DNA from: a virus
Taxonomy: Duplodnaviria; Caudoviricetes
Direction: 5' to 3' (one strand)
DNA: 64,000 bases
Virus record (IMG/VR): IMGVR_UViG_2595698222_000001
Coordinates: 1 to 64,000 of that record
The notes below the pieces were generated by a model. The model ran no database searches. It was not told the origin of the DNA and worked only from the letters and a program-made list of their open reading frames with translations. Position numbers and translations under genes: made by a program. This document shows positions 17,651 to 30,577 of this stretch, in pieces. Numbering within the stretch: position 1 is the first letter of the stretch; each line of letters opens with the position of its first letter.

Positions 17651-17986
17651 TTGGGATTTAAAGAAATCAGGACAGAGAGGAGAAAAGGCATGACAGAATA
17701 TTTAGCAGAAAGTACCCTTGCAAACATGAGATTTGGTTTGTCCATAACAAGACCGGGAATAAATGCAGTAAACGAAAAAATGGCTCTTGAAATAGCTATA
17801 AGTGCATTGGAAAAACAAATTCCAGTTAAGCCCATAGAAGATGGTTCATTTGGGAAATGCCCGGCTTGTGGATATGAATTTAATTCGGAGCTTCTGAGTG
17901 AGTACAATTTGAAATACTGCTTAAATTGTGGGAAGAAGATTCAACTCGCTAAGCAAGGTTTGGAGGTAGACAATGAAAATCATTAA
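17651..17986 (+). CDS. Zinc-ribbon phage protein (true start probably ATG 17689-17691 region)
   Basis: ALEKQIPVKP...CPAC...YCLNCG. Confidence 0.6.
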   Translation: MGFKEIRTERRKGMTEYLAESTLANMRFGLSITRPGINAVNEKMALEIAISALEKQIPVKPIEDGSFGKCPACGYEFNSELLSEYNLKYCLNCGKKIQLAKQGLEVDNENH

Positions 17987-18945: not shown

Positions 18946-19464
18946 ATGTTAGATAACAGGTTAAAAGTTTTTGTTGCAGTGTGCGAAACCCGCGGATATC
19001 AAAAGGCTGCTGATAAATTATTTATCTCACAGCCTGCGGTATCACATCACATACGAAACTTAGAGCAGGAAATGGGAACAAAACTCATTGTATTTAGAAA
19101 AGGGCAGCTTAAGTTAATGCAACTCACGAAACACGGAGAAATATTATTTAAGTATTGCAAGCAGGTAGTTAAACAAGATAAGCAATTACAAGAGGAATTA
19201 GCTCAGAACAAGAATTATGTTCCCCCATTTGAGCCATATAAAATTATGACAAAATTATATGAGGATCCTGACTACATAATGGGGAAAAGGCTAAGTGAGT
19301 TGGTATCATCTATTGCCGAAACTAGATCCGAAAGGGATCGTCTATATAATGCTTTACGTGATGATCCAGATGTAAGGAAGAAAGTATTTGATAGCGGTCA
19401 GCGTAGATTTTATTATTATCACACAGACGATGTTAAAAAGTATATTGAAGATATGCGAATCTGA
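18946..19464 (+). CDS. LysR-type HTH fused to a non-LysR C-terminus
   Basis: AADKLFISQPAVSHHIRNLEQEMG; no substrate-binding domain. Confidence 0.8.
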   Translation: MLDNRLKVFVAVCETRGYQKAADKLFISQPAVSHHIRNLEQEMGTKLIVFRKGQLKLMQLTKHGEILFKYCKQVVKQDKQLQEELAQNKNYVPPFEPYKIMTKLYEDPDYIMGKRLSELVSSIAETRSERDRLYNALRDDPDVRKKVFDSGQRRFYYYHTDDVKKYIEDMRI

Positions 19465-19487
19465 TATTTTGCATAGTTGAAAATCAT

Positions 19488-19540
19488 TGAAAGGAGACCG
19501 GAGCGGTGGCCACCGTGACAGGATATCCTGGCTTCTTTCA
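19488..19540 (+). promoter_or_regulatory. SD-sequestering leader motif, copy A
   Basis: TGAAAGGAG...CGGTGGCCACCG...CAGGATATCCTG-G-CTTCTTTCA, then ATG at 19547. Confidence 0.65.
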
Positions 19541-19546
19541 CAAATA

Positions 19547-22054
19547 ATGGATTATTTAGAGTTTTTGAAAACAAAGATTGAAATTGCAACGGATACAGGA
19601 TTCGCAGTAGAACGGAGCACTATCAATAAGGCATTGAAATTTCATCAGGGTGACGCTGTCGCATGGGCTTTGAAAGGTGGTTGCCGAGCGTTATTTGAAA
19701 GCTTTGGCCTTGGAAAGACAGTTCAGGAAATAGAATTCTGCTATCAGGTAATTAGGAAGTTTGGAGGAAAAGCTCTCATAGTTTGTCCATTGGGTGTTAA
19801 ACAGGAATTCATAAGGGACGCGCAGAGTATTCTCGGTTATGAAAAGCCCATATATGTTAGAAACATGGAAGAGGTTAAGGCTGCAGAAGCTGGTATCCTC
19901 ATTACCAACTACGAACGAGTACGTGATGGAGATATAGACCCCAGTTATTTCACGGCAACTTCTCTTGATGAAGCCAGTGTTCTTAGGAGTTTTGGAAGCA
20001 AGACTTATCAAACCTTCCTGGATAAATTCAAAGAGGTTCCTTACAAACTTGTGGCTACAGCCACGCCAAGTCCGAACAAATATAAAGAGCTGATTCACTA
20101 CGCCGGATATTTGGGAGTTATGGATACCGGCCAGGCATTGACGAGATTCTTTCAGCGAGATTCTACAAAAGCCAATAATTTAACTTTATATTCGAACATG
20201 GAAGATGAGTTCTGGCTTTGGGTAAGCAGCTGGGCGCTATTCATTACAAAGCCTTCAGATATAAACCTGGATTATTCAGATGATGGATATATTCTTCCGC
20301 CTTTAGATGTAAGGTGGCATGAACTTCCGGTAAATTACGGCGATACTGCAGATAGAGATGGCCAGTTTCAGTTATTTAATGAAGCAGCTGACGGCCTGAA
20401 AGAAGCAGCACAGGTGAAACGAGAAAGTATTGACCTAAGAACAGCAAAGATGAAAGAGATCCTTGAGTCTGACCCGGAGGATCATTTTATTATATGGCAT
20501 GACCTGGAAGCAGAGAGACTGGCAATTAAGAAAGCAGTGCCGGGTGTCGTGGATATTTACGGTTCCCAGGATTATGAAATTCGGGAACAAAGGGTTATTG
20601 ACTTTTCAGAGGGTTGTTGTCAGTATTTTGCAACAAAAAAAGAGTTATCAGGATCTGGCTGCAATTTTCAAAAGCATTGTCATAGGGAAATATTCCTGGG
20701 GATTGATTACGAATTTAATGATTTTATTCAGGCCATACATAGGTGCTATCGCTTCCTGCAAAAGGAGCCAGTTATCATTGATATTATCTACATGGAAAAT
20801 GAGAGAGAAATCAAAGATGTGTTACTGGAAAAGTGGAAGAATCATAATCACATGGTAGAAAAAATGATTGAGATTGTTAGAAAGTACGGATTGTCGGCGG
20901 CTGGGAAAGAAAAACGCTTAGAGCGGAAGATGGGAGTTGAAACAGTGAAGGTCAAGGGAAGTAAGTATACAGCAGTTAATGATGATTGCGTAGAAGAAAC
21001 AAGGCGTATGGAAAGTGATAGCGTTGGCCTGATTCATACATCAATACCTTTTGGAAACCATTATGAATATTCGGCCAATTATAATGACTTTGGGCATAAT
21101 CAGGATACGGAAAGATTCTTTGAGCAGATGGACTTCCTTACACCTGAACTTCTTAGGATCCTGCAGCCGGGAAGAGTGGCGGCAATACATGTTAAGGATC
21201 GTATCCTTTTCGGAAACGCTACAGGAACAGGAATGCCCACGGTAGAACCTTTTCATTCAGATTGTATTAGTCATTATATTAAACATGGATTTCAGTATTT
21301 TGGCATGATTACTATTGTTACTGATGTGGTAAGGGAAAATAATCAGACCTATCGGCTGGGCTGGACGGAGCAATGCAAAGATGGAAGCAAAATGGGAGTG
21401 GGTTGTCCAGAATATATTTTACTCTTTAGAAAACTACCTACTGACAGATCAACGGCTTATGCAGACGTACCTGTGAAAAAGACCAAAGAAGATTATACCA
21501 GGGCTCAATGGCAGATAGACGCTCACGGATTCTGGAGATCTTCGGGTAATCGCCTTATTAGAAAAGAAGAGTTAGAAAATGTTTCGGTAAAGAATCTTCA
21601 GGCTGTTTACCGGAAATATAGCAGGGATCATGTTTATGACTATAAAGAGCATGTAGAGCTGGCCAAGAAACTTGATACGGAAGATAAGCTCCCAGCTACA
21701 TTTATGGTGGTTGCGCCGGGAAGCTGGACATGGGAAGTATGGGACGATATCAACCGCATGAGAACTTTGAATACCAGTCAGAGCCGGAGAAGAGCGCAAC
21801 TCCATGTATGTCCTTTACAGCTGGATATAGTGGAACGAATTATCAACAGATATTCCAACGAAGGTGACCTTGTAGCAGATCCATTTGCCGGGCTTATGAC
21901 GATCCCTATGACAGCCGTTAAGATGGGTAGGCTCGGATATGGAATAGAATTGAATCCGGATTATTTCAGAGATGGCGTTGGGTACCTGCAGGCGGCAGAA
22001 GAAGATGTGGATTCCCCGACACTATTTGATTTTATGCCAGAGATAATAGCATAA
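19547..22054 (+). CDS. SNF2-like helicase fused to an N4/N6 DNA methyltransferase
   Basis: GLGKT, LDEAS, TATP; TSIPF and ADPFAG motifs. Confidence 0.88.
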   Translation: MDYLEFLKTKIEIATDTGFAVERSTINKALKFHQGDAVAWALKGGCRALFESFGLGKTVQEIEFCYQVIRKFGGKALIVCPLGVKQEFIRDAQSILGYEKPIYVRNMEEVKAAEAGILITNYERVRDGDIDPSYFTATSLDEASVLRSFGSKTYQTFLDKFKEVPYKLVATATPSPNKYKELIHYAGYLGVMDTGQALTRFFQRDSTKANNLTLYSNMEDEFWLWVSSWALFITKPSDINLDYSDDGYILPPLDVRWHELPVNYGDTADRDGQFQLFNEAADGLKEAAQVKRESIDLRTAKMKEILESDPEDHFIIWHDLEAERLAIKKAVPGVVDIYGSQDYEIREQRVIDFSEGCCQYFATKKELSGSGCNFQKHCHREIFLGIDYEFNDFIQAIHRCYRFLQKEPVIIDIIYMENEREIKDVLLEKWKNHNHMVEKMIEIVRKYGLSAAGKEKRLERKMGVETVKVKGSKYTAVNDDCVEETRRMESDSVGLIHTSIPFGNHYEYSANYNDFGHNQDTERFFEQMDFLTPELLRILQPGRVAAIHVKDRILFGNATGTGMPTVEPFHSDCISHYIKHGFQYFGMITIVTDVVRENNQTYRLGWTEQCKDGSKMGVGCPEYILLFRKLPTDRSTAYADVPVKKTKEDYTRAQWQIDAHGFWRSSGNRLIRKEELENVSVKNLQAVYRKYSRDHVYDYKEHVELAKKLDTEDKLPATFMVVAPGSWTWEVWDDINRMRTLNTSQSRRRAQLHVCPLQLDIVERIINRYSNEGDLVADPFAGLMTIPMTAVKMGRLGYGIELNPDYFRDGVGYLQAAEEDVDSPTLFDFMPEIIA

Positions 22055-22370
22055 GGCAAAGCAAGAGAAGAAAGGAGATAAAAATTTGAAGAATTGGGTT
22101 AAATGGGTGAGTGTAGCCGTGGTCGTATTGTTCGGAATTGGTTTTACAGAATCTCCAATGTGTTTGTGGGCGTTTTTCATTCCGTTTTTAAGTGATTGCT
22201 TTTCATAGACAGGAACGGAGGCAAAGTCTTGAAATATGAATTACATATGCTTTTACGAAAGATAATAATGAGGTGATACGGAAAAGATTGCAATTCGTGT
22301 AAGCATTATGATGGAAGCTTTGGTGACGAGAGCTGCTTTCCCTGTGAACGAAGCATAAAGGCGGTGGGAT

Positions 22371-22745
22371 ATGAACGAAAGTAGAAAATATACGATTTAC
22401 GCCGTAGATTTTGACGGCACACTTGTAGAAAGCGTCTGGCCGGGAATCGGTGAGCCGAATCAGGCATTGATTAATCATTTGATTAAAAGACGTAGAGGGG
22501 GAAACAAAGTAATTCTTTGGACATGCCGCTGTGGCAGCCGCTTGGAAGAAGCTGTTTCATGGTGCAGGAATTATGACCTGGAATTTGACGCTGTGAACGA
22601 GAACTTATCTGAAATGGTAAAGTTGTTCGGAAACGATTCACGAAAGATATTCGCTGATGTTTACATAGACGATAAGGCCAAGGTTAAGGCCAAGTATCGC
22701 ATTCCTTATCAAGGTGGTGAAGATGATGGAAGAACGCGATCTTAG
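22371..22745 (+). CDS. HAD-superfamily hydrolase
   Basis: AVDFDGTL, LWTCR, K...YIDDK. Confidence 0.85.
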   Translation: MNESRKYTIYAVDFDGTLVESVWPGIGEPNQALINHLIKRRRGGNKVILWTCRCGSRLEEAVSWCRNYDLEFDAVNENLSEMVKLFGNDSRKIFADVYIDDKAKVKAKYRIPYQGGEDDGRTRS

Positions 22746-23133
22746 AAAGTACTGGTCCGCCTATACGGACGCATGGAAACTAATGAAAAATCGTCAGATG
22801 GTCAAGCAGGAGCATGTGGCACAGATGATAAAGAAGCATGGGAATCCTGTCATGAGCCGGCTGTTTTGCCTGGTTGTCTGGCAGGAGATTAAGCGGATTA
22901 ATTCCGGGGGGGCTCCTCTTCAGGACAAGCAGTATGAAGAATGTCTTACCGGAGCATGGAAGCTGTTTAAGCAGTACAGCGATCCGAATGATACAGAAGA
23001 ATACTGGAATGGCCTGGTTGATATGATAGGAGCCATGTCCAAAGAATATGGTAATTGCAGCTTTATAAGTAATGTCCTGATCCATGTAACGCTAGAAGAA
23101 CTTGAGCGGATTTGGAGATCTAAAAAGCAATAA
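22714..23133 (+). CDS. Hypothetical protein with an internal duplication
   Basis: TDAWKLMK and TGAWKLFK repeats. Confidence 0.55.
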   Translation: MVKMMEERDLRKYWSAYTDAWKLMKNRQMVKQEHVAQMIKKHGNPVMSRLFCLVVWQEIKRINSGGAPLQDKQYEECLTGAWKLFKQYSDPNDTEEYWNGLVDMIGAMSKEYGNCSFISNVLIHVTLEELERIWRSKKQ

Positions 23134-23137
23134 AAAG

Positions 23138-23186
23138 TGAAAGGAGCCGACCTCCTGCAGGGGTAACGCTATAGCGGGTCCTTTTG
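23138..23186 (+). promoter_or_regulatory. SD-sequestering leader motif, copy B
   Basis: TGAAAGGAGCC...CCTGCAGG...CGCTATAGCG-GGTCCTTTTG, then ATG at 23192. Confidence 0.6.
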
Positions 23187-23191
23187 AGAAT

Positions 23192-24934
23192 ATGAGAGAT
23201 TTATTAATAGATTGCTTTGCCGGAGGCGGTGGGGCAAGCGTTGGGATGGAAATGGCTTTGGGCCGTCCGGTTGATATTGCTATCAATCATAATCCACAAG
23301 CTATCAGGATGCACAGAACGAATCACCCTGATACGCTTCATTTGACAGAGGATATCTTCAAGGTAGACCTGCAGAAATATGTAAAAGGCCGTCATGTAGC
23401 TTTAATGTGGGCCAGCCCAGACTGTACCAGTCATAGCAAGGCAAAAGGCGGTAAGCCGCGAGAGAAAGGGCTTAGAATTCTTCCATGGGCAGTATATAAA
23501 CATGCGAAAGCAATTCTGCCTGATGTGATCCTGATGGAGAATGTTGAAGAGATCCAGCAGTGGGGACCCTTGGATAATGAGGGTTATCCAATAAAGGAGC
23601 GTAAGGGAGAGGATTATCAAAGGTTTATTACAGCCATGAAGTCACTGGGTTACATATTTGATAGTCGGGAACTGATAGCAGCCGATTACGGAGCTCCCAC
23701 CACAAGAAAAAGATGGTATGCAGTATTTCGGAGAGATGGAAAGCCGATTGTCTGGCCGGAACCGACTCATAACAAAAATGGTACTGATGGGTTAAAGAGA
23801 TGGGAACCTATATGGAAATATCTTGAATTAACGGATTTAGGAAAATCTATATTTGGCAGAAAGAAGCCACTGGCAGATAAGACGATGAACCGGATCGCCA
23901 GGGGATTGGATAAATTTGTTTTTAATTGCCCGGAACCGTTTATTGTTCAGGTGAATCATGGGGGAGATAACTTCCGGGGACAGAGCATACATGAGCCTAT
24001 GCCTACCATAACGCAGAAGCATGGCTTTGGAACTGTGACACCGTACATTATGCAGATAGGGCAGACTGGATTTTGTACAGAACGCAATCGTTCAGTTGAA
24101 GATCCATTGAGTACAGTAGTTACAAACAACGAACATTGCCTGATATCGCCAGTTATCACACCCTTCATAGAGAAGTCTTATGGAGGTAATTACAAAGGAG
24201 CGGGCAGTGGCATGGATGAGCCAGTACATACTATCACTACGGTTGATCATAACCATGTTGTTGCACCACTTTTGATTCAGTATCATTCCGAAACATCAAA
24301 ATCTGATGTGAGAGGGCAGTCAGTTGACGTACCGATAATGACACTGGATACCAGTAACCGTTATGGCTTGGTGGCGGCTTTCCTTACAAAATTCTATAAA
24401 ACGGGAATAGGTCAGCCTTTATGGGAACCGATACATACAATCACAACCAGTCCTGGGCATTTTGGACAAGTCAGTATTCTTGCAATCAGCAAGGAAGAAC
24501 TGTTGAAGAATGGTGTTGATGAAGAAACAGCACAGAAATGCACTTGGGTAAGCCAGTTTATCATTAAGTACTACGGTGGTGATGTGTCTGGTGTAAGTTT
24601 GGAAGAACCACTTCATACTATTGTGACAAAAGACAGATTTGCTTTGGTTACGGTCCTTGGTAGTGAATATGTGATTCTGGATATCTTTCTACGTATGTTG
24701 AAGGCCGAACCAGAATTGAAATTGGGACAGGGATTCCCAGAGGATTATATTATTGACCATGATTACGAAGGGAAAAAGTACCCAGTATCTGAACAGGTGG
24801 CCCGTATTGGAAACAGCGTTGTTCCCATCGTGGCTAAAGCGTTGGTTGTGGCGAATTGCTCATATCTGAAAATCGGAGAGCGAATGCCAAACATGAGGAT
24901 TGATGATAGCCAGGAGCAGCTTAGATTTGCCTGA
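23192..24934 (+). CDS. C5-cytosine DNA methyltransferase with a long repeated variable region
   Basis: FAGGGG, SPDC, ENV, R-R, GNSV; repeated EP(M/V/I/L)HTITT units. Confidence 0.92.
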   Translation: MRDLLIDCFAGGGGASVGMEMALGRPVDIAINHNPQAIRMHRTNHPDTLHLTEDIFKVDLQKYVKGRHVALMWASPDCTSHSKAKGGKPREKGLRILPWAVYKHAKAILPDVILMENVEEIQQWGPLDNEGYPIKERKGEDYQRFITAMKSLGYIFDSRELIAADYGAPTTRKRWYAVFRRDGKPIVWPEPTHNKNGTDGLKRWEPIWKYLELTDLGKSIFGRKKPLADKTMNRIARGLDKFVFNCPEPFIVQVNHGGDNFRGQSIHEPMPTITQKHGFGTVTPYIMQIGQTGFCTERNRSVEDPLSTVVTNNEHCLISPVITPFIEKSYGGNYKGAGSGMDEPVHTITTVDHNHVVAPLLIQYHSETSKSDVRGQSVDVPIMTLDTSNRYGLVAAFLTKFYKTGIGQPLWEPIHTITTSPGHFGQVSILAISKEELLKNGVDEETAQKCTWVSQFIIKYYGGDVSGVSLEEPLHTIVTKDRFALVTVLGSEYVILDIFLRMLKAEPELKLGQGFPEDYIIDHDYEGKKYPVSEQVARIGNSVVPIVAKALVVANCSYLKIGERMPNMRIDDSQEQLRFA

Positions 24935-24971
24935 TATAACGTAGAATTAAAGATTTATTGTTCCTTGATAA

Positions 24972-25574
24972 TTGAATATTGATAGTTGGAATGGTATAAT
25001 TCCTTTATCACTAAAGATGGGGGGAGTATTATGGATTGGAATATATTTTGGGCGGCATTTGGTGCAATAGGGACTACTTTAGGTTCTTTGATAACAGCAA
25101 GTGCTGTAGTTATTGCAGTTAAACAGTATAAGCAACCTTTGATGAAGATTGTAAAAGTAGTGGTGACTTCGGCTGCTATAGTTGATAATTCAGGAAATTA
25201 TTTAATGTTTTATTGTATAAGCATAAAGAATAGAGGTATAAGAACAGTACAAATTAACTCTATAAATATCAAGGGGAATAAGAAAGTGTTGTGGTTAAAT
25301 AGTACTCAATTTGAATCAGATACTAAAATAAATCTTCCGGTAAAAATCGAGCCAGAAGAAATCATAGACTTTTTGATTGAAGTGGAAAAATTTAGATTGG
25401 AGATAAAAAAAGCTGTTACAAATAAGGTAATCAGGAAGAGGGGTAAATTAGTGGTTTTTGTAACAGATTCTCTTGGCGATAAGTATTATTGTAAAACAAA
25501 TATTAAAATTGCAAGCTTAATAAATTCTCTTTAATGTTTGTAACCAACTATCAATATTCGGTAGTTGGTTTTTT
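24972..25574 (+). mobile_element. Framed moron cassette 2
   Basis: GAATATTGATAGTTGG (24974-24989) against CCAACTATCAATATTC (25544-25559), perfect inverted match. TTGAAT-17-TATAAT promoter. Terminator at 25542-25574. Confidence 0.78.
25031..25534 (+). CDS. Membrane-anchored hypothetical protein (moron)
   Basis: N-terminal hydrophobic helix, low GC, own promoter and terminator. Confidence 0.7.
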   Translation: MDWNIFWAAFGAIGTTLGSLITASAVVIAVKQYKQPLMKIVKVVVTSAAIVDNSGNYLMFYCISIKNRGIRTVQINSINIKGNKKVLWLNSTQFESDTKINLPVKIEPEEIIDFLIEVEKFRLEIKKAVTNKVIRKRGKLVVFVTDSLGDKYYCKTNIKIASLINSL

Positions 25575-25585
25575 GTTGCAAAAAA

Positions 25586-25635
25586 TGAAAGGAGGCTGGA
25601 GCTCCTGCAGGGCAAAGTCATGACGGCTCCTTTCA
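25586..25635 (+). promoter_or_regulatory. SD-sequestering leader motif, copy C
   Basis: TGAAAGGAG...CCTGCAGG...GTCATGAC-GG-CTCCTTTCA, then ATG at 25639. Confidence 0.65.
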
Positions 25636-25638
25636 AAA

Positions 25639-26692
25639 ATGTTTATAAAAGAAGATGATTTGAAACTTAATGAGTGGCAATTTTCACAGCGAAAATATTT
25701 GCCATGGGAAACAAAATTGCAACTGACGAAGACCAGAATACAGGAGTGGTATGATAACTGGGGTGGTCAAGTATATCTCAGTTATTCCGGTGGATTGGAT
25801 AGTACTGTATTGCTTCATCTGATCCGCAAGACTATAGGTGATGATATGCCGGCAGTGTTCTCAAATACAGGCTTGGAGTTCCCCGAAATTGTTCGATTTG
25901 CAAGGAAGGCACCTGGAACTTTTAAGGAGATAGAACCACGTAATAAAGATGGTAAACGCATCACATACAGGGACGTTATTTTGAGCGAAGGATATCCTCT
26001 TGTAAGCAAAGAAACTGCTATGAAAATCAGGAAGTTACGGCACGGGAATTTATCAGATAGATACCGGAATTACTTGCTGAATGGTGATGAAAGGGGCTCT
26101 TTTGGAGTTCTTCCGAAAAAATGGAGATGCCTCCTGAACGCACCTTTTGATACCTCTGAAAAATGTTGTGATGTGATGAAAAAGAAACCATTCATTAAGT
26201 ATACAAAAGAAACTGGCCGGGTTCCGTTCATTGGAACAACGCAAGACGAGGGATTTGTGAGAGCGCGTCTTTATTCACATACAGGTTGTAATGTGTATGA
26301 TGGTAAGACAATCAAACCAGCCTATGGGGTTTTGGACAAAGCAAGACGTATTACGGTATGTCGTTGAGAATGATTTGGAAATATGCTCCGTATACGGTGA
26401 CATTAAGCAATCTCCCCGTGGCAAATATTATCTCACTGGGGAGCAACGGACTGGCTGCATGTTCTGCGCATTTGGAGCCCATTTAGAACCAGAACCTAAC
26501 CGCTTTCAGCGAATGTCAATTACGCACCCAGGATATTATCGTTTATGTTTTAAGCCATTGGAGAGCGGCGGACTAGGAATGAGCGTACCGTTGGACTACC
26601 TTGGAATCCCGTATGAAACCTGGGAATCAGTGGGACAGATGAATTTGGCTGACTACCTGAATGAAGAAAGGAATGGACTATGTGGAAAATAA
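25639..26692 (+). pseudogene. PAPS-reductase-family protein, frameshifted near 26316
   Basis: SYSGGLDS and KCC in ORF 25639-26367. PMGFWTKQD and RTGCMFC continue in another frame (26291-26692). Confidence 0.82.
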
Positions 26693-26892
26693 AAATTGTT
26701 TACAGTGATAAAAGTAAATGCACGTTAACAGGGAAACACAAGGAAATTCCATTAGAACTGGCACGCCATTACTATAACCAGTATGCGGCAGGGAAGAAGT
26801 GTAAAGTTACATACCAGCAATATCCTAAAAAGGATTTTGCAGAAACGGACTTGTATGAGAAGATTGTGGAACTGGAATCCAGTGAGGAATAG
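26680..26892 (+). CDS. Hypothetical phage protein
   Basis: ORF coupled to the upstream gene. Confidence 0.5.
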   Translation: MWKIKIVYSDKSKCTLTGKHKEIPLELARHYYNQYAAGKKCKVTYQQYPKKDFAETDLYEKIVELESSEE

Positions 26893-27236
26893 CTGAAAGT
26901 GCTTGGGGGGACCGGCAAGGTTTCCCCTGCCGGTATGAGTATGAAAAAGCTATGCATCTAAAAATCCAACATTCTTAGGAGCACGTTTGTATTATAGCAG
27001 ATATGAATCAGTTTAGCAGATGTAAAATTTTACCATTTTCAATTAAAGACAAGAAATAGCCGGGGCATAGACCCCGGTAAAAAAACAACTCTAAAAGAAC
27101 ATACATTCGAATGGTGGATAATAAACAAGCGGCAGAGTCACCGACCAAAGTTTTTCTACCGCTTCACGCTTAAGGATATTATAAATCAAACTGTCTCCTT
27201 AAGCAACTAATTTTTTAGTAAAGGAGATTACATATT

Positions 27237-28274
27237 GTGAATGGACAAACTGTTAAAGCACAGGTTATTAATAATATCATTGTTGCCATGGCAGGGCATG
27301 TGGCGAAAGAAGTTTTAGACATTCTTCATCAGGTGGTCATAAAGGAATTTGTTAATGTCAATATGGAGGAGATTACAACTCTTCCGGTAGAATATCAGAA
27401 TGATATGGATCAAAAAAACAAATACATTATTCAGCTTTTCATTGTTAAGAAGAAAATCAAAGATAATACAAAGGAAGCTTACCTTGGTGCGGTAAAACGA
27501 CTAATTACCCTGATTGATAAGCCATTGGATAAAATTGAGGAATCAGATATCAGTTTTTATCTTTCCTGGTATGAGAAGCGAAATGTTAATGTAGGCGGGA
27601 AAAAGAATCAAGCAGTGACAGTGAATAATGAAAGACGGTTCTTATCTGCTTTCTTCACTTGGATGCGGAAGGAAAAGTTAATAGGTGAAAACCCGGTGGA
27701 AGCTACTGATCCGCTGAAAACGGTTCGGAAACCGATTGATTATTTCAAGCCAGAAGAGATGGCGAAGATGAGAGATGCTTGTAAGAAACCAAGGGAGCGC
27801 GCCTTAATAGAAGTGCTACGGAGCACCGGTGCCAGAGTCGGAGAGCTGGTCGAAATTACTATTGATCAGATAGATTGGAGGACTGGAGATATTGTAATTC
27901 TGGGAGAGAAGAATGACAAGTATCAGCCCATCTTCTTAGATGACGAAGCTCGATATTATTACCGGCAGTATCTTGACTCCAGGAGTGATGATAGTCCGTT
28001 TATGTTTCCTCACTGTAGGGAACCTTATGAAAAGCTGTCAACTTCCGGTATCCGGAGCATCTTAAAAACCATTGGTAACCGGGCCAAATTGAAATGCCGG
28101 GTATACCCTCATAAAATGCGTAAGACACTGGGAATGAGTCTTAAAAATAAGGGTGTGGACATTGGTACTATTCAGGAGATTTTGAGGCATTCCAGTCCGT
28201 CGGTGACAGCTATTTATTATGCTCAGTCAACACCGGATACATTAAGAAACGTGAGGGAGAGATGTTCAGCATGA
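27237..28274 (+). CDS. Second tyrosine recombinase (XerC/D-like)
   Basis: STGARVGEL, GEK, YPHKMRKT, LRH, TAIYY. Confidence 0.93.
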   Translation: MNGQTVKAQVINNIIVAMAGHVAKEVLDILHQVVIKEFVNVNMEEITTLPVEYQNDMDQKNKYIIQLFIVKKKIKDNTKEAYLGAVKRLITLIDKPLDKIEESDISFYLSWYEKRNVNVGGKKNQAVTVNNERRFLSAFFTWMRKEKLIGENPVEATDPLKTVRKPIDYFKPEEMAKMRDACKKPRERALIEVLRSTGARVGELVEITIDQIDWRTGDIVILGEKNDKYQPIFLDDEARYYYRQYLDSRSDDSPFMFPHCREPYEKLSTSGIRSILKTIGNRAKLKCRVYPHKMRKTLGMSLKNKGVDIGTIQEILRHSSPSVTAIYYAQSTPDTLRNVRERCSA

Positions 28275-28633
28275 TGAAAAAAACGGTCAAGGAACAATTA
28301 AAGAGTTTGGTAGCGCTTAATGCTGCAATCTCTGAGGCTGGAGAAGAAATACAAGCTATTCAAAAGGAAATTAATACATATGGGTATGATGAAAAATATT
28401 CCTCTGCTTTAAATGATCTGAAGCAGAAAACCATCTACCACCGATATCTAAAAGTAAAAAATTATATAAATTTATATGATAAAATAGAAGCTCTGGAAGA
28501 CGAGCAGGAAAAACGCTTGTTGAGATACCGGTATTTACGAGGCTGGCGTTGGGAGGCTATTGCTGATAAAATGGGATATTCACTTAGGCAAACTTTTAAT
28601 ATACATAAGAAAGCTCTCCAAAACATTGAATAG
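28262..28633 (+). CDS. ArpU/RinA-like transcriptional activator
   Basis: LLRYRYLRGWRWEAIADKMGYSLRQTFNIHKKAL. Followed by GTGCA-N5-GTGCA and TG-n-TATGCT at 28639-28673. Confidence 0.8.
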   Translation: MFSMMKKTVKEQLKSLVALNAAISEAGEEIQAIQKEINTYGYDEKYSSALNDLKQKTIYHRYLKVKNYINLYDKIEALEDEQEKRLLRYRYLRGWRWEAIADKMGYSLRQTFNIHKKALQNIE

Positions 28634-28691
28634 TATTTGTGCATAGAAGTGCAGTTATAATTTATGATATGCTGACCTTAGAAATTAAAAG

Positions 28692-28737
28692 GAAAGGAGG
28701 CGAAGTTTTCCGGATAAAAGCTGCAGCGACTTCTTTC
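28692..28737 (+). promoter_or_regulatory. SD-sequestering leader motif, copy D
   Basis: GAAAGGAG...TCCGGA...GCTGCAGC-GA-CTTCTTTC, then ATG at 28742. Confidence 0.62.
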
Positions 28738-28741
28738 TACA

Positions 28742-29764
28742 ATGAGTTTAACTTTTTTGGACTTTTTTGCGGGCATTGGAGGATTTCGTAGAGGTATGGA
28801 ATTGGCAGGTCATAAATGTATTGGTTTCTGTGAATGGGATAAGTTCGCAGTCATGAGCTACACTTCAATGCATTTGATTACAGAAGATCAAAGGCAGCTC
28901 CTTCTTCAACTTCCAATAAAACATAGGCAAAAAGAAATTTTAAAGGAGGAATATCGGAATGGAGAATGGTATGCAAATGACATCAGAACAGTTAATGTCA
29001 GAGACCTGCCAAAAGCAGATGTATGGTGTTTTGGATTTCCCTGCCAAGACATATCTATCGCCGGGAAAAGACTCGGATTCGCTGGAAAGCGTTCAAGTCT
29101 GTTTTTCACAGTTACAGGACTTATTAAAGACCTTGAAGAAAAAGATAAACCCTCAATGTTATTTATTGAGAACGTTAAAAACTTACTTAGTGTTAATCGA
29201 GGACTTGACTTTGCCAAACTTCTCATTGAGTTGGATGAAATCGGCTACGATGTCGAATGGCAAGTTCTCAATACAAAAGACTTCGGAATTCCACAAAGCC
29301 GAGAAAGAGTGTTCATTATTGGATTTCTTAGAGGAAGAAGCAGAAGAGAAGTATTACCTGTCAGAGGATCAGGTTGCAAAAATAATTTTCCATTATTAAA
29401 GCCTAAGAAGTATGGGGACGGCATATTAATACGGGATGTAAATAAAAAAGGTTATTCTTTAGCCGAAGTGGGAGATAGTATAAGTCTTGCTTTTCTTAAC
29501 AGTAAAACAAAGCGTGGCAGGGTAGGAAAGGGAAAGGTCCATACATTAACAACTGCATGTAATCAGGCAGTTGTATGTGAAAAGGATAGGACCCCAAAGA
29601 TTCGAAAACTAACCCCTCGTGAATGTTTTCGCCTACAAGGTTGGACAGATTATTATTTCGATAAAGCAGCGATAGTTAATAGTGATAACCAACTGTACAA
29701 ACAGGCTGGTAATGGAGTGACAGTGAAGGTAATACAGAACATAGCTACTAAATTTCATCATTAA
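28742..29764 (+). CDS. C5-cytosine DNA methyltransferase (alpha-type polypeptide)
   Basis: FAGIGG, GFPCQDIS, ENV, QSRERVF, RKLTPRECFRLQG, GNGV. Confidence 0.93.
   Translation: MSLTFLDFFAGIGGFRRGMELAGHKCIGFCEWDKFAVMSYTSMHLITEDQRQLLLQLPIKHRQKEILKEEYRNGEWYANDIRTVNVRDLPKADVWCFGFPCQDISIAGKRLGFAGKRSSLFFTVTGLIKDLEEKDKPSMLFIENVKNLLSVNRGLDFAKLLIELDEIGYDVEWQVLNTKDFGIPQSRERVFIIGFLRGRSRREVLPVRGSGCKNNFPLLKPKKYGDGILIRDVNKKGYSLAEVGDSISLAFLNSKTKRGRVGKGKVHTLTTACNQAVVCEKDRTPKIRKLTPRECFRLQGWTDYYFDKAAIVNSDNQLYKQAGNGVTVKVIQNIATKFHH
28959..29399 (+). CDS. Nested +1-frame ORF, probable M.EcoHK31I-beta-like methyltransferase subunit
   Basis: 146 open codons inside the methyltransferase gene, ending WMKSATMSNGKF...ECSLLDFLEEEAEEKYYLSEDQV. 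Confidence 0.6.
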   Translation: MENGMQMTSEQLMSETCQKQMYGVLDFPAKTYLSPGKDSDSLESVQVCFSQLQDLLKTLKKKINPQCYLLRTLKTYLVLIEDLTLPNFSLSWMKSATMSNGKFSIQKTSEFHKAEKECSLLDFLEEEAEEKYYLSEDQVAKIIFHY

Positions 29765-29815
29765 TAGTATTTCTAAAAATTGTTCTATTGAGATTCTCCA
29801 AAACAAGAGGAGGTT

Positions 29816-30577
29816 TTGTATATGAATAGTTTTATTAGCTGGATAGGTGGAAAAAAGTTATTAAGAAAGCAGATTTTAGAGCAGTTTCCGGATCAGACTT
29901 CCTATGGACGTTATATTGAAGTTTTTGGAGGAGCTGGTTGGGTATTATTTTCAAGAGATAAACATGCTCCGTTGGAAGTCTTCAACGATTTGAACGGAGA
30001 ATTGATCAATTTATACCGGGTGGTAAAATATCACCCGGAACCGCTGCAGAAGGAATTGGAATGGCTGCTTATGTCCCGGGAACAGTTCTTTGATGAGTTG
30101 AACCGTAATATCAGAGGTATGACCGACATACAACGAGCCGCCCGGTTCTTCTGCCTGATCAGGGAGAGTTTTGGTACAGATTGTAAATCTTTTAGAGTAA
30201 GTCCGAGAGATATGCAGAAAGCAGTTGATTATCTAAAGGAAGTTTCTGGACGATTAAATCGAGTGGTAATTGAGAACCAGGACTTTGAACGGCTGATTAA
30301 AACGTATGATAGGCCAGACGCATTATTCTATCTGGACCCTCCATATTACGAAGCAGAGAAGTATTATCCGGACCGGTTCAATCCGGAGGATCATGAAAGG
30401 CTGTGTAAATGCCTGAGCAATTTAAAGGGAAGATTCGTTTTATCTTATAACGATTGCCAGCAGATACGTGATTTGTATGAGGGATATACAAGCATTGAAG
30501 TTGACAGAATGGACAATTTAGCGAACAAGGATAGGAGTAGGAGATACAAGGAGTTAATCATAAAGAATTTCGAATAA
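29816..30577 (+). CDS. Dam-family (D12 class) DNA adenine methyltransferase
   Basis: WIGGKK, EVFGGAG, NDLN, YLDPPY, SYND. Confidence 0.93.
   Translation: MYMNSFISWIGGKKLLRKQILEQFPDQTSYGRYIEVFGGAGWVLFSRDKHAPLEVFNDLNGELINLYRVVKYHPEPLQKELEWLLMSREQFFDELNRNIRGMTDIQRAARFFCLIRESFGTDCKSFRVSPRDMQKAVDYLKEVSGRLNRVVIENQDFERLIKTYDRPDALFYLDPPYYEAEKYYPDRFNPEDHERLCKCLSNLKGRFVLSYNDCQQIRDLYEGYTSIEVDRMDNLANKDRSRRYKELIIKNFE

Follow-up and report, generated by a model that had tools for sequence, protein, structure and literature searches.

The window analysed here (a 64,000-nucleotide (nt) stretch of DNA, positions 1 to 64,000 of the IMG/VR record IMGVR_UViG_2595698222_000001, Caudoviricetes) is a prophage, with an SbcC-like protein, RecT, a replication initiator and a DnaB-like helicase encoded upstream and the large terminase encoded downstream. 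Given this order of flanking genes, the four copies of the leader of about 50 bases described in this report mark a DNA-modification module placed between replication and packaging. The four leaders are labelled w1–w4, and L-numbers denote loci fetched from outside the window. All four served genes lie on the + strand: behind w1 is a gene for an 835-amino-acid (aa) SNF2-helicase/N6_N4 DNA methylase (19547–22054), behind w2 a gene for a 580-aa C5 DNA methylase (23192–24934), behind w3 a PAPS-reductase-like gene (25639–26692) and behind w4 a gene for a 340-aa C5 DNA methylase (28742–29764). The family scan (SNF2 plus N6_N4 methylase, C5 methylase, PAPS_reduct and C5 methylase) bore out the names which the initial annotation had given to these genes. 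The helicase-methylase begins at ATG 19547; the TTG at 19487 of the listed open reading frame (ORF) falls inside leader w1. The D12 adenine methylase gene that comes after the 340-aa C5 methylase gene (29816–30577) has no leader of its own.

The layout described initially was found by sequence reading at 4/4 places. From 5' to 3', a distal Shine-Dalgarno sequence (SD, GAAAGGAG) is separated by 2–3 nt from a second GGAG-like strand, which reads GGAGC, GACC or GAAGT. Two perfect palindromes come next (palindromes 1 and 2), with 3–5 nt of purine-rich linker between them, then 0–1 nt and a 3' strand ending, in the type of the layout, with CTYCTTTC. The start codon follows after 4–7 nt, slightly farther than the 3–6 nt claimed before. 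The distal SD is the only SD; its distance, given before as about 45–55 nt, is to be corrected to 42–50 nt between the SD end and ATG, so that the start codon stands without an adjacent SD.

In w1 the SD (19489–19496), complementary to the 3' tail CCTCCTTTC of the host 16S ribosomal RNA (rRNA), is followed by GGAGC (19500–19504), which is the 5' strand of helix P1b, by palindrome 1 CGGTGGCCACCG (19504–19515), by palindrome 2 CAGGATATCCTG (19519–19530) and by the shared 3' strand GCTTCTTTC (19531–19539, with CTTCTTTC at 19532–19539), able to pair with the SD (helix P1a) or with GGAGC (helix P1b). Leader w2 has its SD at 23139–23146, the covarying variant GACC as 5' strand of P1b at 23149–23152, palindrome 1 CCTGCAGG at 23154–23161, palindrome 2 CGCTATAGCG at 23167–23176 and the 3' strand GGTCCTTTT at 23177–23185, the pyrimidine part of which (GTCCTTTT) ends at 23185. 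The corresponding parts of w3 are the SD (25587–25594), the P1b strand GGAGC (25598–25602), palindrome 1 CCTGCAGG (25604–25611), palindrome 2 GTCATGAC (25617–25624) and the 3' strand GCTCCTTTC (25626–25634, with CTCCTTTC at 25627–25634). Those of w4 are the SD (28692–28699), the covarying P1b strand GAAGT (28702–28706), palindrome 1 TCCGGA (28709–28714), palindrome 2 GCTGCAGC (28720–28727) and the 3' strand ACTTCTTTC (28729–28737, with CTTCTTTC at 28730–28737). All these parts are on the + strand. A short upstream ORF in the leader was considered and rejected, since only w2 and w3 have one: w4 has none, and in w1 it shares the frame of the gene.

The pattern GAAAGGAG-N25-50-CTYYTTT occurs four times in the window (once each at w1 and w4 and on both strands at w3), against a mean of 0.04 in shuffled sequences (n=100), none of which reached four; w2 escapes this pattern because its 3' strand reads TCCTTTT. 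With a covariance model made from 26 leaders, w1–w4 are the sole matches in the 64 kb (E from 1e-12 to 1.5e-9). The whole genome of 5.27 Mb contains 82 SD/anti-SD pairs as counted by script, and by inspection only the leaders add to such a pair two palindromes and a nearby ATG. A fifth copy is located in a second prophage of the same genome, before the gene of a 418-aa PAPS-reductase homologue.

The 3' strand has two complementary partners, the SD (giving P1a) and the second GGAG-like strand (giving P1b). Because both helices use this strand, P1a and P1b are, as read from the sequence, mutually exclusive alternatives and not parts of one fold. Of the three-way junction proposed in the initial annotation, the helix that would close it, P1b, covaries; the SD/anti-SD helix does not belong to the same fold. 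Pair counts were made on alignment A2 (56 distinct leader rows). In P1b 98.1% of 268 cells pair, with both-sided changes at 4/5 pairs (32 cells), so the covariation that was sought does exist in this helix. Its covariation score is 0.384 as compared to 0.149 ± 0.015 in shuffles (0/500 as high), and in controls with the strands slid against each other at most 77.7% of the cells pair. The variants are GGAGC/GCTCC, GAAGT/ACTTC, GAAGC/GCTTC, GACC/GGTC, GGAACC/GGTTCC, GAACC/GGTTC, GAATCC/GGATTC and AGCC/GGCT. In P1a 91.7% of 444 cells pair, 44 of those as G.U. One-sided changes in both helices are G.U and not A.C, a strand-specific feature that, like the purine bias of the linker, favours the RNA reading given below.

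Folding predictions place the SD in a helix. The P1a state is the unconstrained optimum in 20/26 leaders, in agreement with the earlier claim that the distal SD is paired with the pyrimidine strand beside the start codon, and it is more stable than the P1b state in 25/26, with a mean advantage of 6.4 kcal/mol; the predicted optimum folds of 4/4 window leaders contain a paired SD. The host 16S rRNA ends with CACCTCCTTTCT, which makes the cis strand CTCCTTTC a copy of the rRNA tail. As for spacing in 70 distinct leaders, P1b begins 1–3 nt after the SD and ends 7–12 nt before ATG. Measured through P1b, the SD–ATG distance is the sum of the two, 9–15 nt with a mode of 13, in place of 42–50 nt. A distal SD whose usual spacing (5–13 nt) is restored by an intervening structure is what defines a split ribosome-binding site (RBS), and the leader has this arrangement.

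All copies lie between the distal SD and the start codon in sense orientation. Orientation and spacing together with the compensatory change speak for a function at the RNA level. We regard the anatomy, the gene association, the complementarity of both helices and the compensatory change in P1b as established; the identity of the active state, the trigger of the switch and its purpose we infer as follows. Judging from the sequences, we incline to the view that the leader is a cis-acting translational gate, in which a helix sequestering the SD competes with a split RBS. In the resting state the rRNA-tail-like 3' strand (GCTCCTTTC-like), 4–7 nt before ATG, would pair with the only SD by means of P1a and hide it, and potentially harmful enzymes would be made sparingly or late. 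In the active state this strand would move to the second GGAG-like strand, 2–3 nt after the SD. P1b would then close a compact element of 30–38 nt holding the two palindromes, leaving the SD free at 9–15 nt from ATG. The exchange could be driven by binding of the 30S subunit to the SD or by some phage factor. P1b would repay a part of the cost of opening P1a, which would make the gate leaky and tunable and not closed. The likely purpose is low or timed synthesis of DNA-modifying enzymes, as for mom of phage Mu.

Several observations weigh against this gate. P1a shows no both-sided changes because its SD strand never varies, and shuffles equal it (283/500); the case for P1a is thus limited to complementarity and energy. 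The model to which alignment A2 was fitted contained P1b, which favours P1b in the counts, though the P1b variants are evident in the unaligned sequences too. The z-scores of single-sequence folding are weak (−0.8 to −1.8), 13 nt through the helix lies towards the upper limit of the workable spacings, and the TTTC part of the 3' strand is absent in L243 and in the GGAGA-type leaders of L290 and L137. For the 8-nt palindromes no RNA hairpin is predicted, so that a compact three-way junction is doubtful for them in the modelling, and the strict self-complementarity of the palindrome centres has no role in the gate model.

The translational gate would unite two known tricks in 50 nt, sequestration of the SD by an rRNA-tail mimic and a split RBS, and the leader would be a new form of leaders of these two kinds. 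In the split initiation regions of phage T4 the SD–AUG distance is shortened from 27 to 11 nt in gene 25 and from 22 to 5 nt in gene 38 (PMC3014915). As in those genes, a distal SD would be brought near the start codon by intervening RNA structure. The leader differs in having a competing helix that sequesters the SD with an rRNA-tail mimic, in carrying a two-element junction instead of one hairpin, and in recurring on several unrelated genes of one functional class. The likeness to Mu mom is that of a phage DNA-modification gene with start signals masked by mRNA structure and exposed on demand, in Mu by Com (PMC6483171). There is no sequence or structure similarity between mom and the leader, and Mu has one such gene as opposed to four in the window phage and 1–2 in most other leader phages. 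No Com-like activator was identified in the window, where small ORFs were inspected by eye only. Upstream of the modification module there is a 111-aa ORF (17651–17986) with a C-terminal CxxC...CxxC zinc ribbon, a conceivable candidate for a Com-like factor. With SD-sequestering platforms such as riboswitches and RNA thermometers the leader shares an anti-SD pairing with the SD and an alternative helix that frees it; it differs by the lack of an aptamer-like conserved core, by the SD-like nature of the alternative partner and by the distal position of the SD.

The initial annotation also suggested sensing of S-adenosylmethionine (SAM) or S-adenosylhomocysteine (SAH). A riboswitch for SAM, SAH or another small molecule would suit the position of the element in leaders of methylase genes, and a three-way junction is possible. 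Conservation is, however, concentrated in the SD, in the second GGAG strand and in the 3' strand: among the inner alignment columns 22–52 identity exceeds 80% at five only (40, 41, 43, 50 and 52), linker length ranges over 1–8 nt and the sequence of the palindromes is free, so the conserved ligand core and fixed geometry of a SAM or SAH riboswitch are not seen and little conserved unpaired sequence is left. The element has merely 30–38 nt, and it serves PAPS-reductase-like, helicase and homing-endonuclease genes too. The Rfam check proposed before was carried out and no family matches the leaders: Rfam 15 gave no match in the whole window at gathering scores, and over 19400–28800 at E ≤ 5 only two chance hits, both away from the leaders; no riboswitch model matches the leaders at this threshold. 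Guanidine-II riboswitches consist of two hairpins with conserved ACGR loops; the centres here are GGCC, CCGG, GCGC, ATAT, TGCA and others, none of them ACGR. Ligand sensing by the leader thus appears extremely unlikely.

Outside the window, a pattern scan of IMG/VR gave at least 105 stretches, and further copies came from gene-anchored fetches, including 80 loci fetched with a PAPS reductase query. In total at least 157 instances, at least 43 of them distinct, were parsed from IMG/VR contigs, related genomes and the cultured Ruminococcus phage phiRM10, where the leader stands before the gp48 DNA methylase; it is conserved among phages infecting gut bacteria. Of 301 genomes sampled from the host's family at one per genus, that of the window among them, 4 contain an exact pattern. 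One or two copies are present in each of five IMG/VR records that were searched in full, which puts the four of the window at the high end. Neither a near-identity search of 19000–29800 nor a distant search of the w3 leader gave a match among deposited phages.

A downstream ORF was available for 99 instances, from which 7 ORFs below 60 aa and 12 running off the locus were left out. The 70 unique complete proteins that remained form 20 clusters, and 19 representatives were scanned: C5 methylases (4), N6/N4 methylases (4), PAPS-reductase-like proteins (5), a DEAD/ResIII helicase (1), an HNH/NUMOD homing endonuclease (1) and proteins of no family (4). Modification-type classes (C5, N6/N4, PAPS-reductase-like and helicase) thus make up 14/19; the PAPS-reductase class is enriched by design, since 80 loci came from the query for it, and the pattern-scan loci are free of this bias. 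The link to modification genes in other phages, expected from the window, is thereby corroborated, and position and downstream gene classes agree on a cis-acting leader tied to such genes. By gene family, the leader is found before 57/80 loci of one N6 methylase family (41/57 distinct upstream regions), 18/79 PAPS-reductase loci (13/52) and 5/80 loci of the w4-type C5 methylase (5/61), counts that, like the others given here, include related sequences and so overstate independence. Leaderless orthologues (e.g. L056 and L035) have the same start Met with an ordinary SD ~7 nt upstream, which identifies the element as an insert of 30–38 nt in the SD–ATG spacer. Phage methylases and related enzymes decide survival of host restriction and are costly or toxic when over-made; a portable gate shared by this whole gene class would, if true, offer a new way into the timing of DNA modification by gut phages.

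True starts behind the leader can escape gene callers, which is of practical importance. In phiRM10 (MT980841.1, L366 3443–3540) the deposited coding sequence of gp48 starts at a later ATG (L366 3537), and its homologues start at ATG 3498 (L366), directly behind the leader; probably the true start is missed since no SD adjoins it. In L296 and L300 (about 300–400) up to six tandem 15-nt repeats, each with an ATG, come directly after the leader and before the part that the N6 methylase query matches, and may represent copy-number variation at the gene start. A one-hairpin variant of the leader precedes the same N6 methylase family in L313, L330, L346 and L356 (about 340–400). It consists of GAAAGGAA, a single palindrome (TGTGCGCACA or GTCGCGAC) in a GGTT...AACC stem and then GGTTTCCTTTT; the L346 copy has an asymmetric centre.

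Comparison of contigs from four related DNA runs over 19400–29300 revealed mosaic joints. One contig links the end of leader w1 directly to ATG 23192, and another links the first half of w3 to a different palindrome 2 before a C5 methylase gene. Palindromes 1 and 2 are found in many combinations, and the same leader stands before different genes. As far as the contigs tell, the leaders are also module boundaries, which we take for a consequence of a short conserved sequence at gene starts and not for the function. Alternatively, the element might chiefly serve as a linker for recombination, or be a small mobile insert bounded by inverted ends, at the boundaries of modification cassettes and with no regulatory role of its own, as the position of the joints at or inside leaders and its status as an insert relative to orthologues could suggest. 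We consider this very unlikely: the gene-linked copies are all in sense orientation at a fixed distance from SD and ATG, compensatory changes preserve P1b, the 3' strand mimics the rRNA tail, and recombination at short conserved gene starts is expected anyway. A miniature mobile element would be flanked by direct repeats, and alignment A2 has the inverted ends without such repeats. In L093 (611–1162, − strand) an HNH/NUMOD homing endonuclease gene stands directly after a leader that serves methylase genes elsewhere, which suggests a mobile gene inserted at a cassette boundary.

The inner elements of the leader are perfect palindromes of 6–12 nt, with 25 distinct forms at position 1 and 24 at position 2 among the parsed instances. 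Their symmetry was tested on leaders chosen without a palindrome criterion, with hairpins defined by stems alone; hairpin covariation was counted by script, as the MAFFT alignment puts the palindromes out of register. The 4-nt "loop" is self-complementary in 23/26 distinct stem-defined hairpins versus 6.9% in shuffles; of the remaining three, one is a spurious hairpin of the linker, one a simple leader of a different sort and one a decayed copy. Symmetric cores are swapped within the same flanks: TGGCCA/TGCGCA, CC-GGCC-GG/CC-TGCA-GG/CC-AGCT-GG, TCA-GC-TGA/TCA-TA-TGA and GT-CATG-AC/GT-GTAC-AC. Hexamers recur in several covarying flank contexts (TCCGGA 6, GATATC 6, TGGCCA 5, CGGCCG 4, TGCGCA 4), and the outer palindrome positions tolerate G.U. 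The centre of palindrome 1 is G/C-only (GGCC, CCGG, GCGC) in 21/25 distinct forms, that of palindrome 2 in 2/24; the linker between them is 76% purine on the sense strand. Leaders of one phage differ in their palindromes (the window, L010, L015 and L137), with CTGCAG recurring in three of the four window leaders and CCTGCAGG common to w2 and w3. The symmetric centres are the part which is possibly new in principle and point to a further layer, either sensing at the DNA level or RNA self-pairing.

An RNA hairpin needs no symmetric loop and the 8-nt forms are not predicted to fold, so a duplex reader of the palindromes is called for. The duplex could be DNA, in line with the alternative of the initial annotation that the palindromes act as methylation sensors: they would be targets of restriction-modification-type enzymes, e.g. 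the phage's own methylases, and their modification state would feed back on the modification genes, with the RNA helices acting alongside or being secondary. Strictly symmetric centres are needed only by a duplex reader, double swaps inside the same flanks keep the symmetry, and the genes served are DNA-modification genes. Mu mom, too, is under both Dam-methylation sensing and a translational block. In a more specific form, one site would be of a cytosine type (GGCC, CCGG or GCGC centres) and the other adenine-containing, which would fit the uneven distribution of G/C-only centres (21/25 vs 2/24), and the phage would read the completeness of modification from its own DNA to gate its modification genes. 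Such feedback would, if true, update itself upon a change of methylase specificity and explain why the centres are swapped among restriction-site-like words and yet stay symmetric. The leader hexamers, however, are ordinary words in phage and host: the window contains CTGCAG 27, TCCGGA 27 and GATATC 28 times, with observed/expected ratios of 0.8–1.1 in window and host. A sensor of rare restriction sites was rejected on the same ground, these hexamers being avoided in neither. Moreover, N6 methylases at least 84% identical stand behind at least 12 different palindrome pairs, so the words do not track the downstream methylase; about seven specificities would be needed for the four window leaders; and the flanks of the cores covary like stems with G.U tolerated at the outer positions, neither of which a protein site needs. 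To our knowledge there is no read-out of methylation independent of sequence, which counts further against DNA as the duplex that is read. The PDB matches of the two window C5 methylases cover the catalytic domain only, hence their specificity cannot be deduced, and the changes inside palindromes (~8 G.U vs 3 A.C, by eye) are too weak to separate RNA from DNA. Reading of the palindromes as duplex DNA is therefore rated as unlikely, and the version with one cytosine-type and one adenine-type site as a little more doubtful still.

The duplex could also be formed by RNA. Leaders of the same mRNA species would pair with each other at high concentration, and translation would fall as the transcript dose rises. 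The symmetry of the whole palindromes, the free choice of their sequence and the different palindromes on leaders of one phage could all be explained in this way, and computed dimers surpass two monomers in stability by a mean of 17 kcal/mol, a computational figure of a kind which any inverted repeat would give, as it gains energy on cofolding. RNA hairpins may also form self-complementary duplexes at high concentration (PMC6483171); cellular mRNA concentrations, however, are low. The palindrome CCTGCAGG shared by w2 and w3, and its CTGCAG core shared by w4, speak against designed orthogonality, and self-pairing does not account for the G/C versus A/T difference of the two palindromes. We judge it quite improbable. 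The hairpin apex of the dimerization initiation site of human immunodeficiency virus 1 is likewise a palindromic hexamer that varies between lineages and stays palindromic. There the palindrome occupies a 9-nt loop able to kiss; in contrast, the palindrome of the leader enters the stem and leaves a loop of at most 4 nt.

Turning to earlier records of the element, no description of the leader was found in the literature; the candidate lists of PMC10690425 were not compared. This 2023 screen of IMG/VR reports four unnamed candidates, typically located before DNA N-6-adenine methyltransferase genes, as well as many candidates called "palindromic", and the leader may be among them, catalogued without analysis. 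The portion of its main text consulted gives no structure, mechanism or palindrome analysis. The accessible part of Weinberg 2017 likewise has no methylase, PAPS or palindrome motif.

Some minor observations in the window concern the surroundings of the leaders. A strong terminator-like hairpin with a T run (25542–25570, + strand) ends 16 nt upstream of w3, which leaves no room for a promoter there, and the arrangement of a terminator followed by a leader is repeated in locus L055. Expression of the PAPS-reductase gene may depend on terminator read-through. A promoter scan gave 32 sites against 28.9 expected, i.e. the chance level. Upstream of w1 and w4 a common word (ATTTTGCATAG/ATTTGTGCATAG, at 19465–19476 and 28633–28645) may be a promoter or operator element. 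The PAPS-reductase-like gene itself is split into a 242-aa ORF (25639–26367) and an overlapping 133-aa ORF (26291–26692). Contigs of 4/4 related DNA runs have two extra G after 26315, and the orthologues are of 344–351 aa; from these sequences the split is a frameshift or an assembly error in the window's genome. A tyrosine recombinase gene (Phage_integrase with a SAM-like N-terminal domain, 27237–28274) is situated in the middle of the module and not at a prophage end. Finally, a 182-aa ORF without a family match (24986–25534) is replaced in the related contig of run X3 by an unrelated segment of 311 nt, the boundaries of which are the start of this ORF and the terminator before w3.

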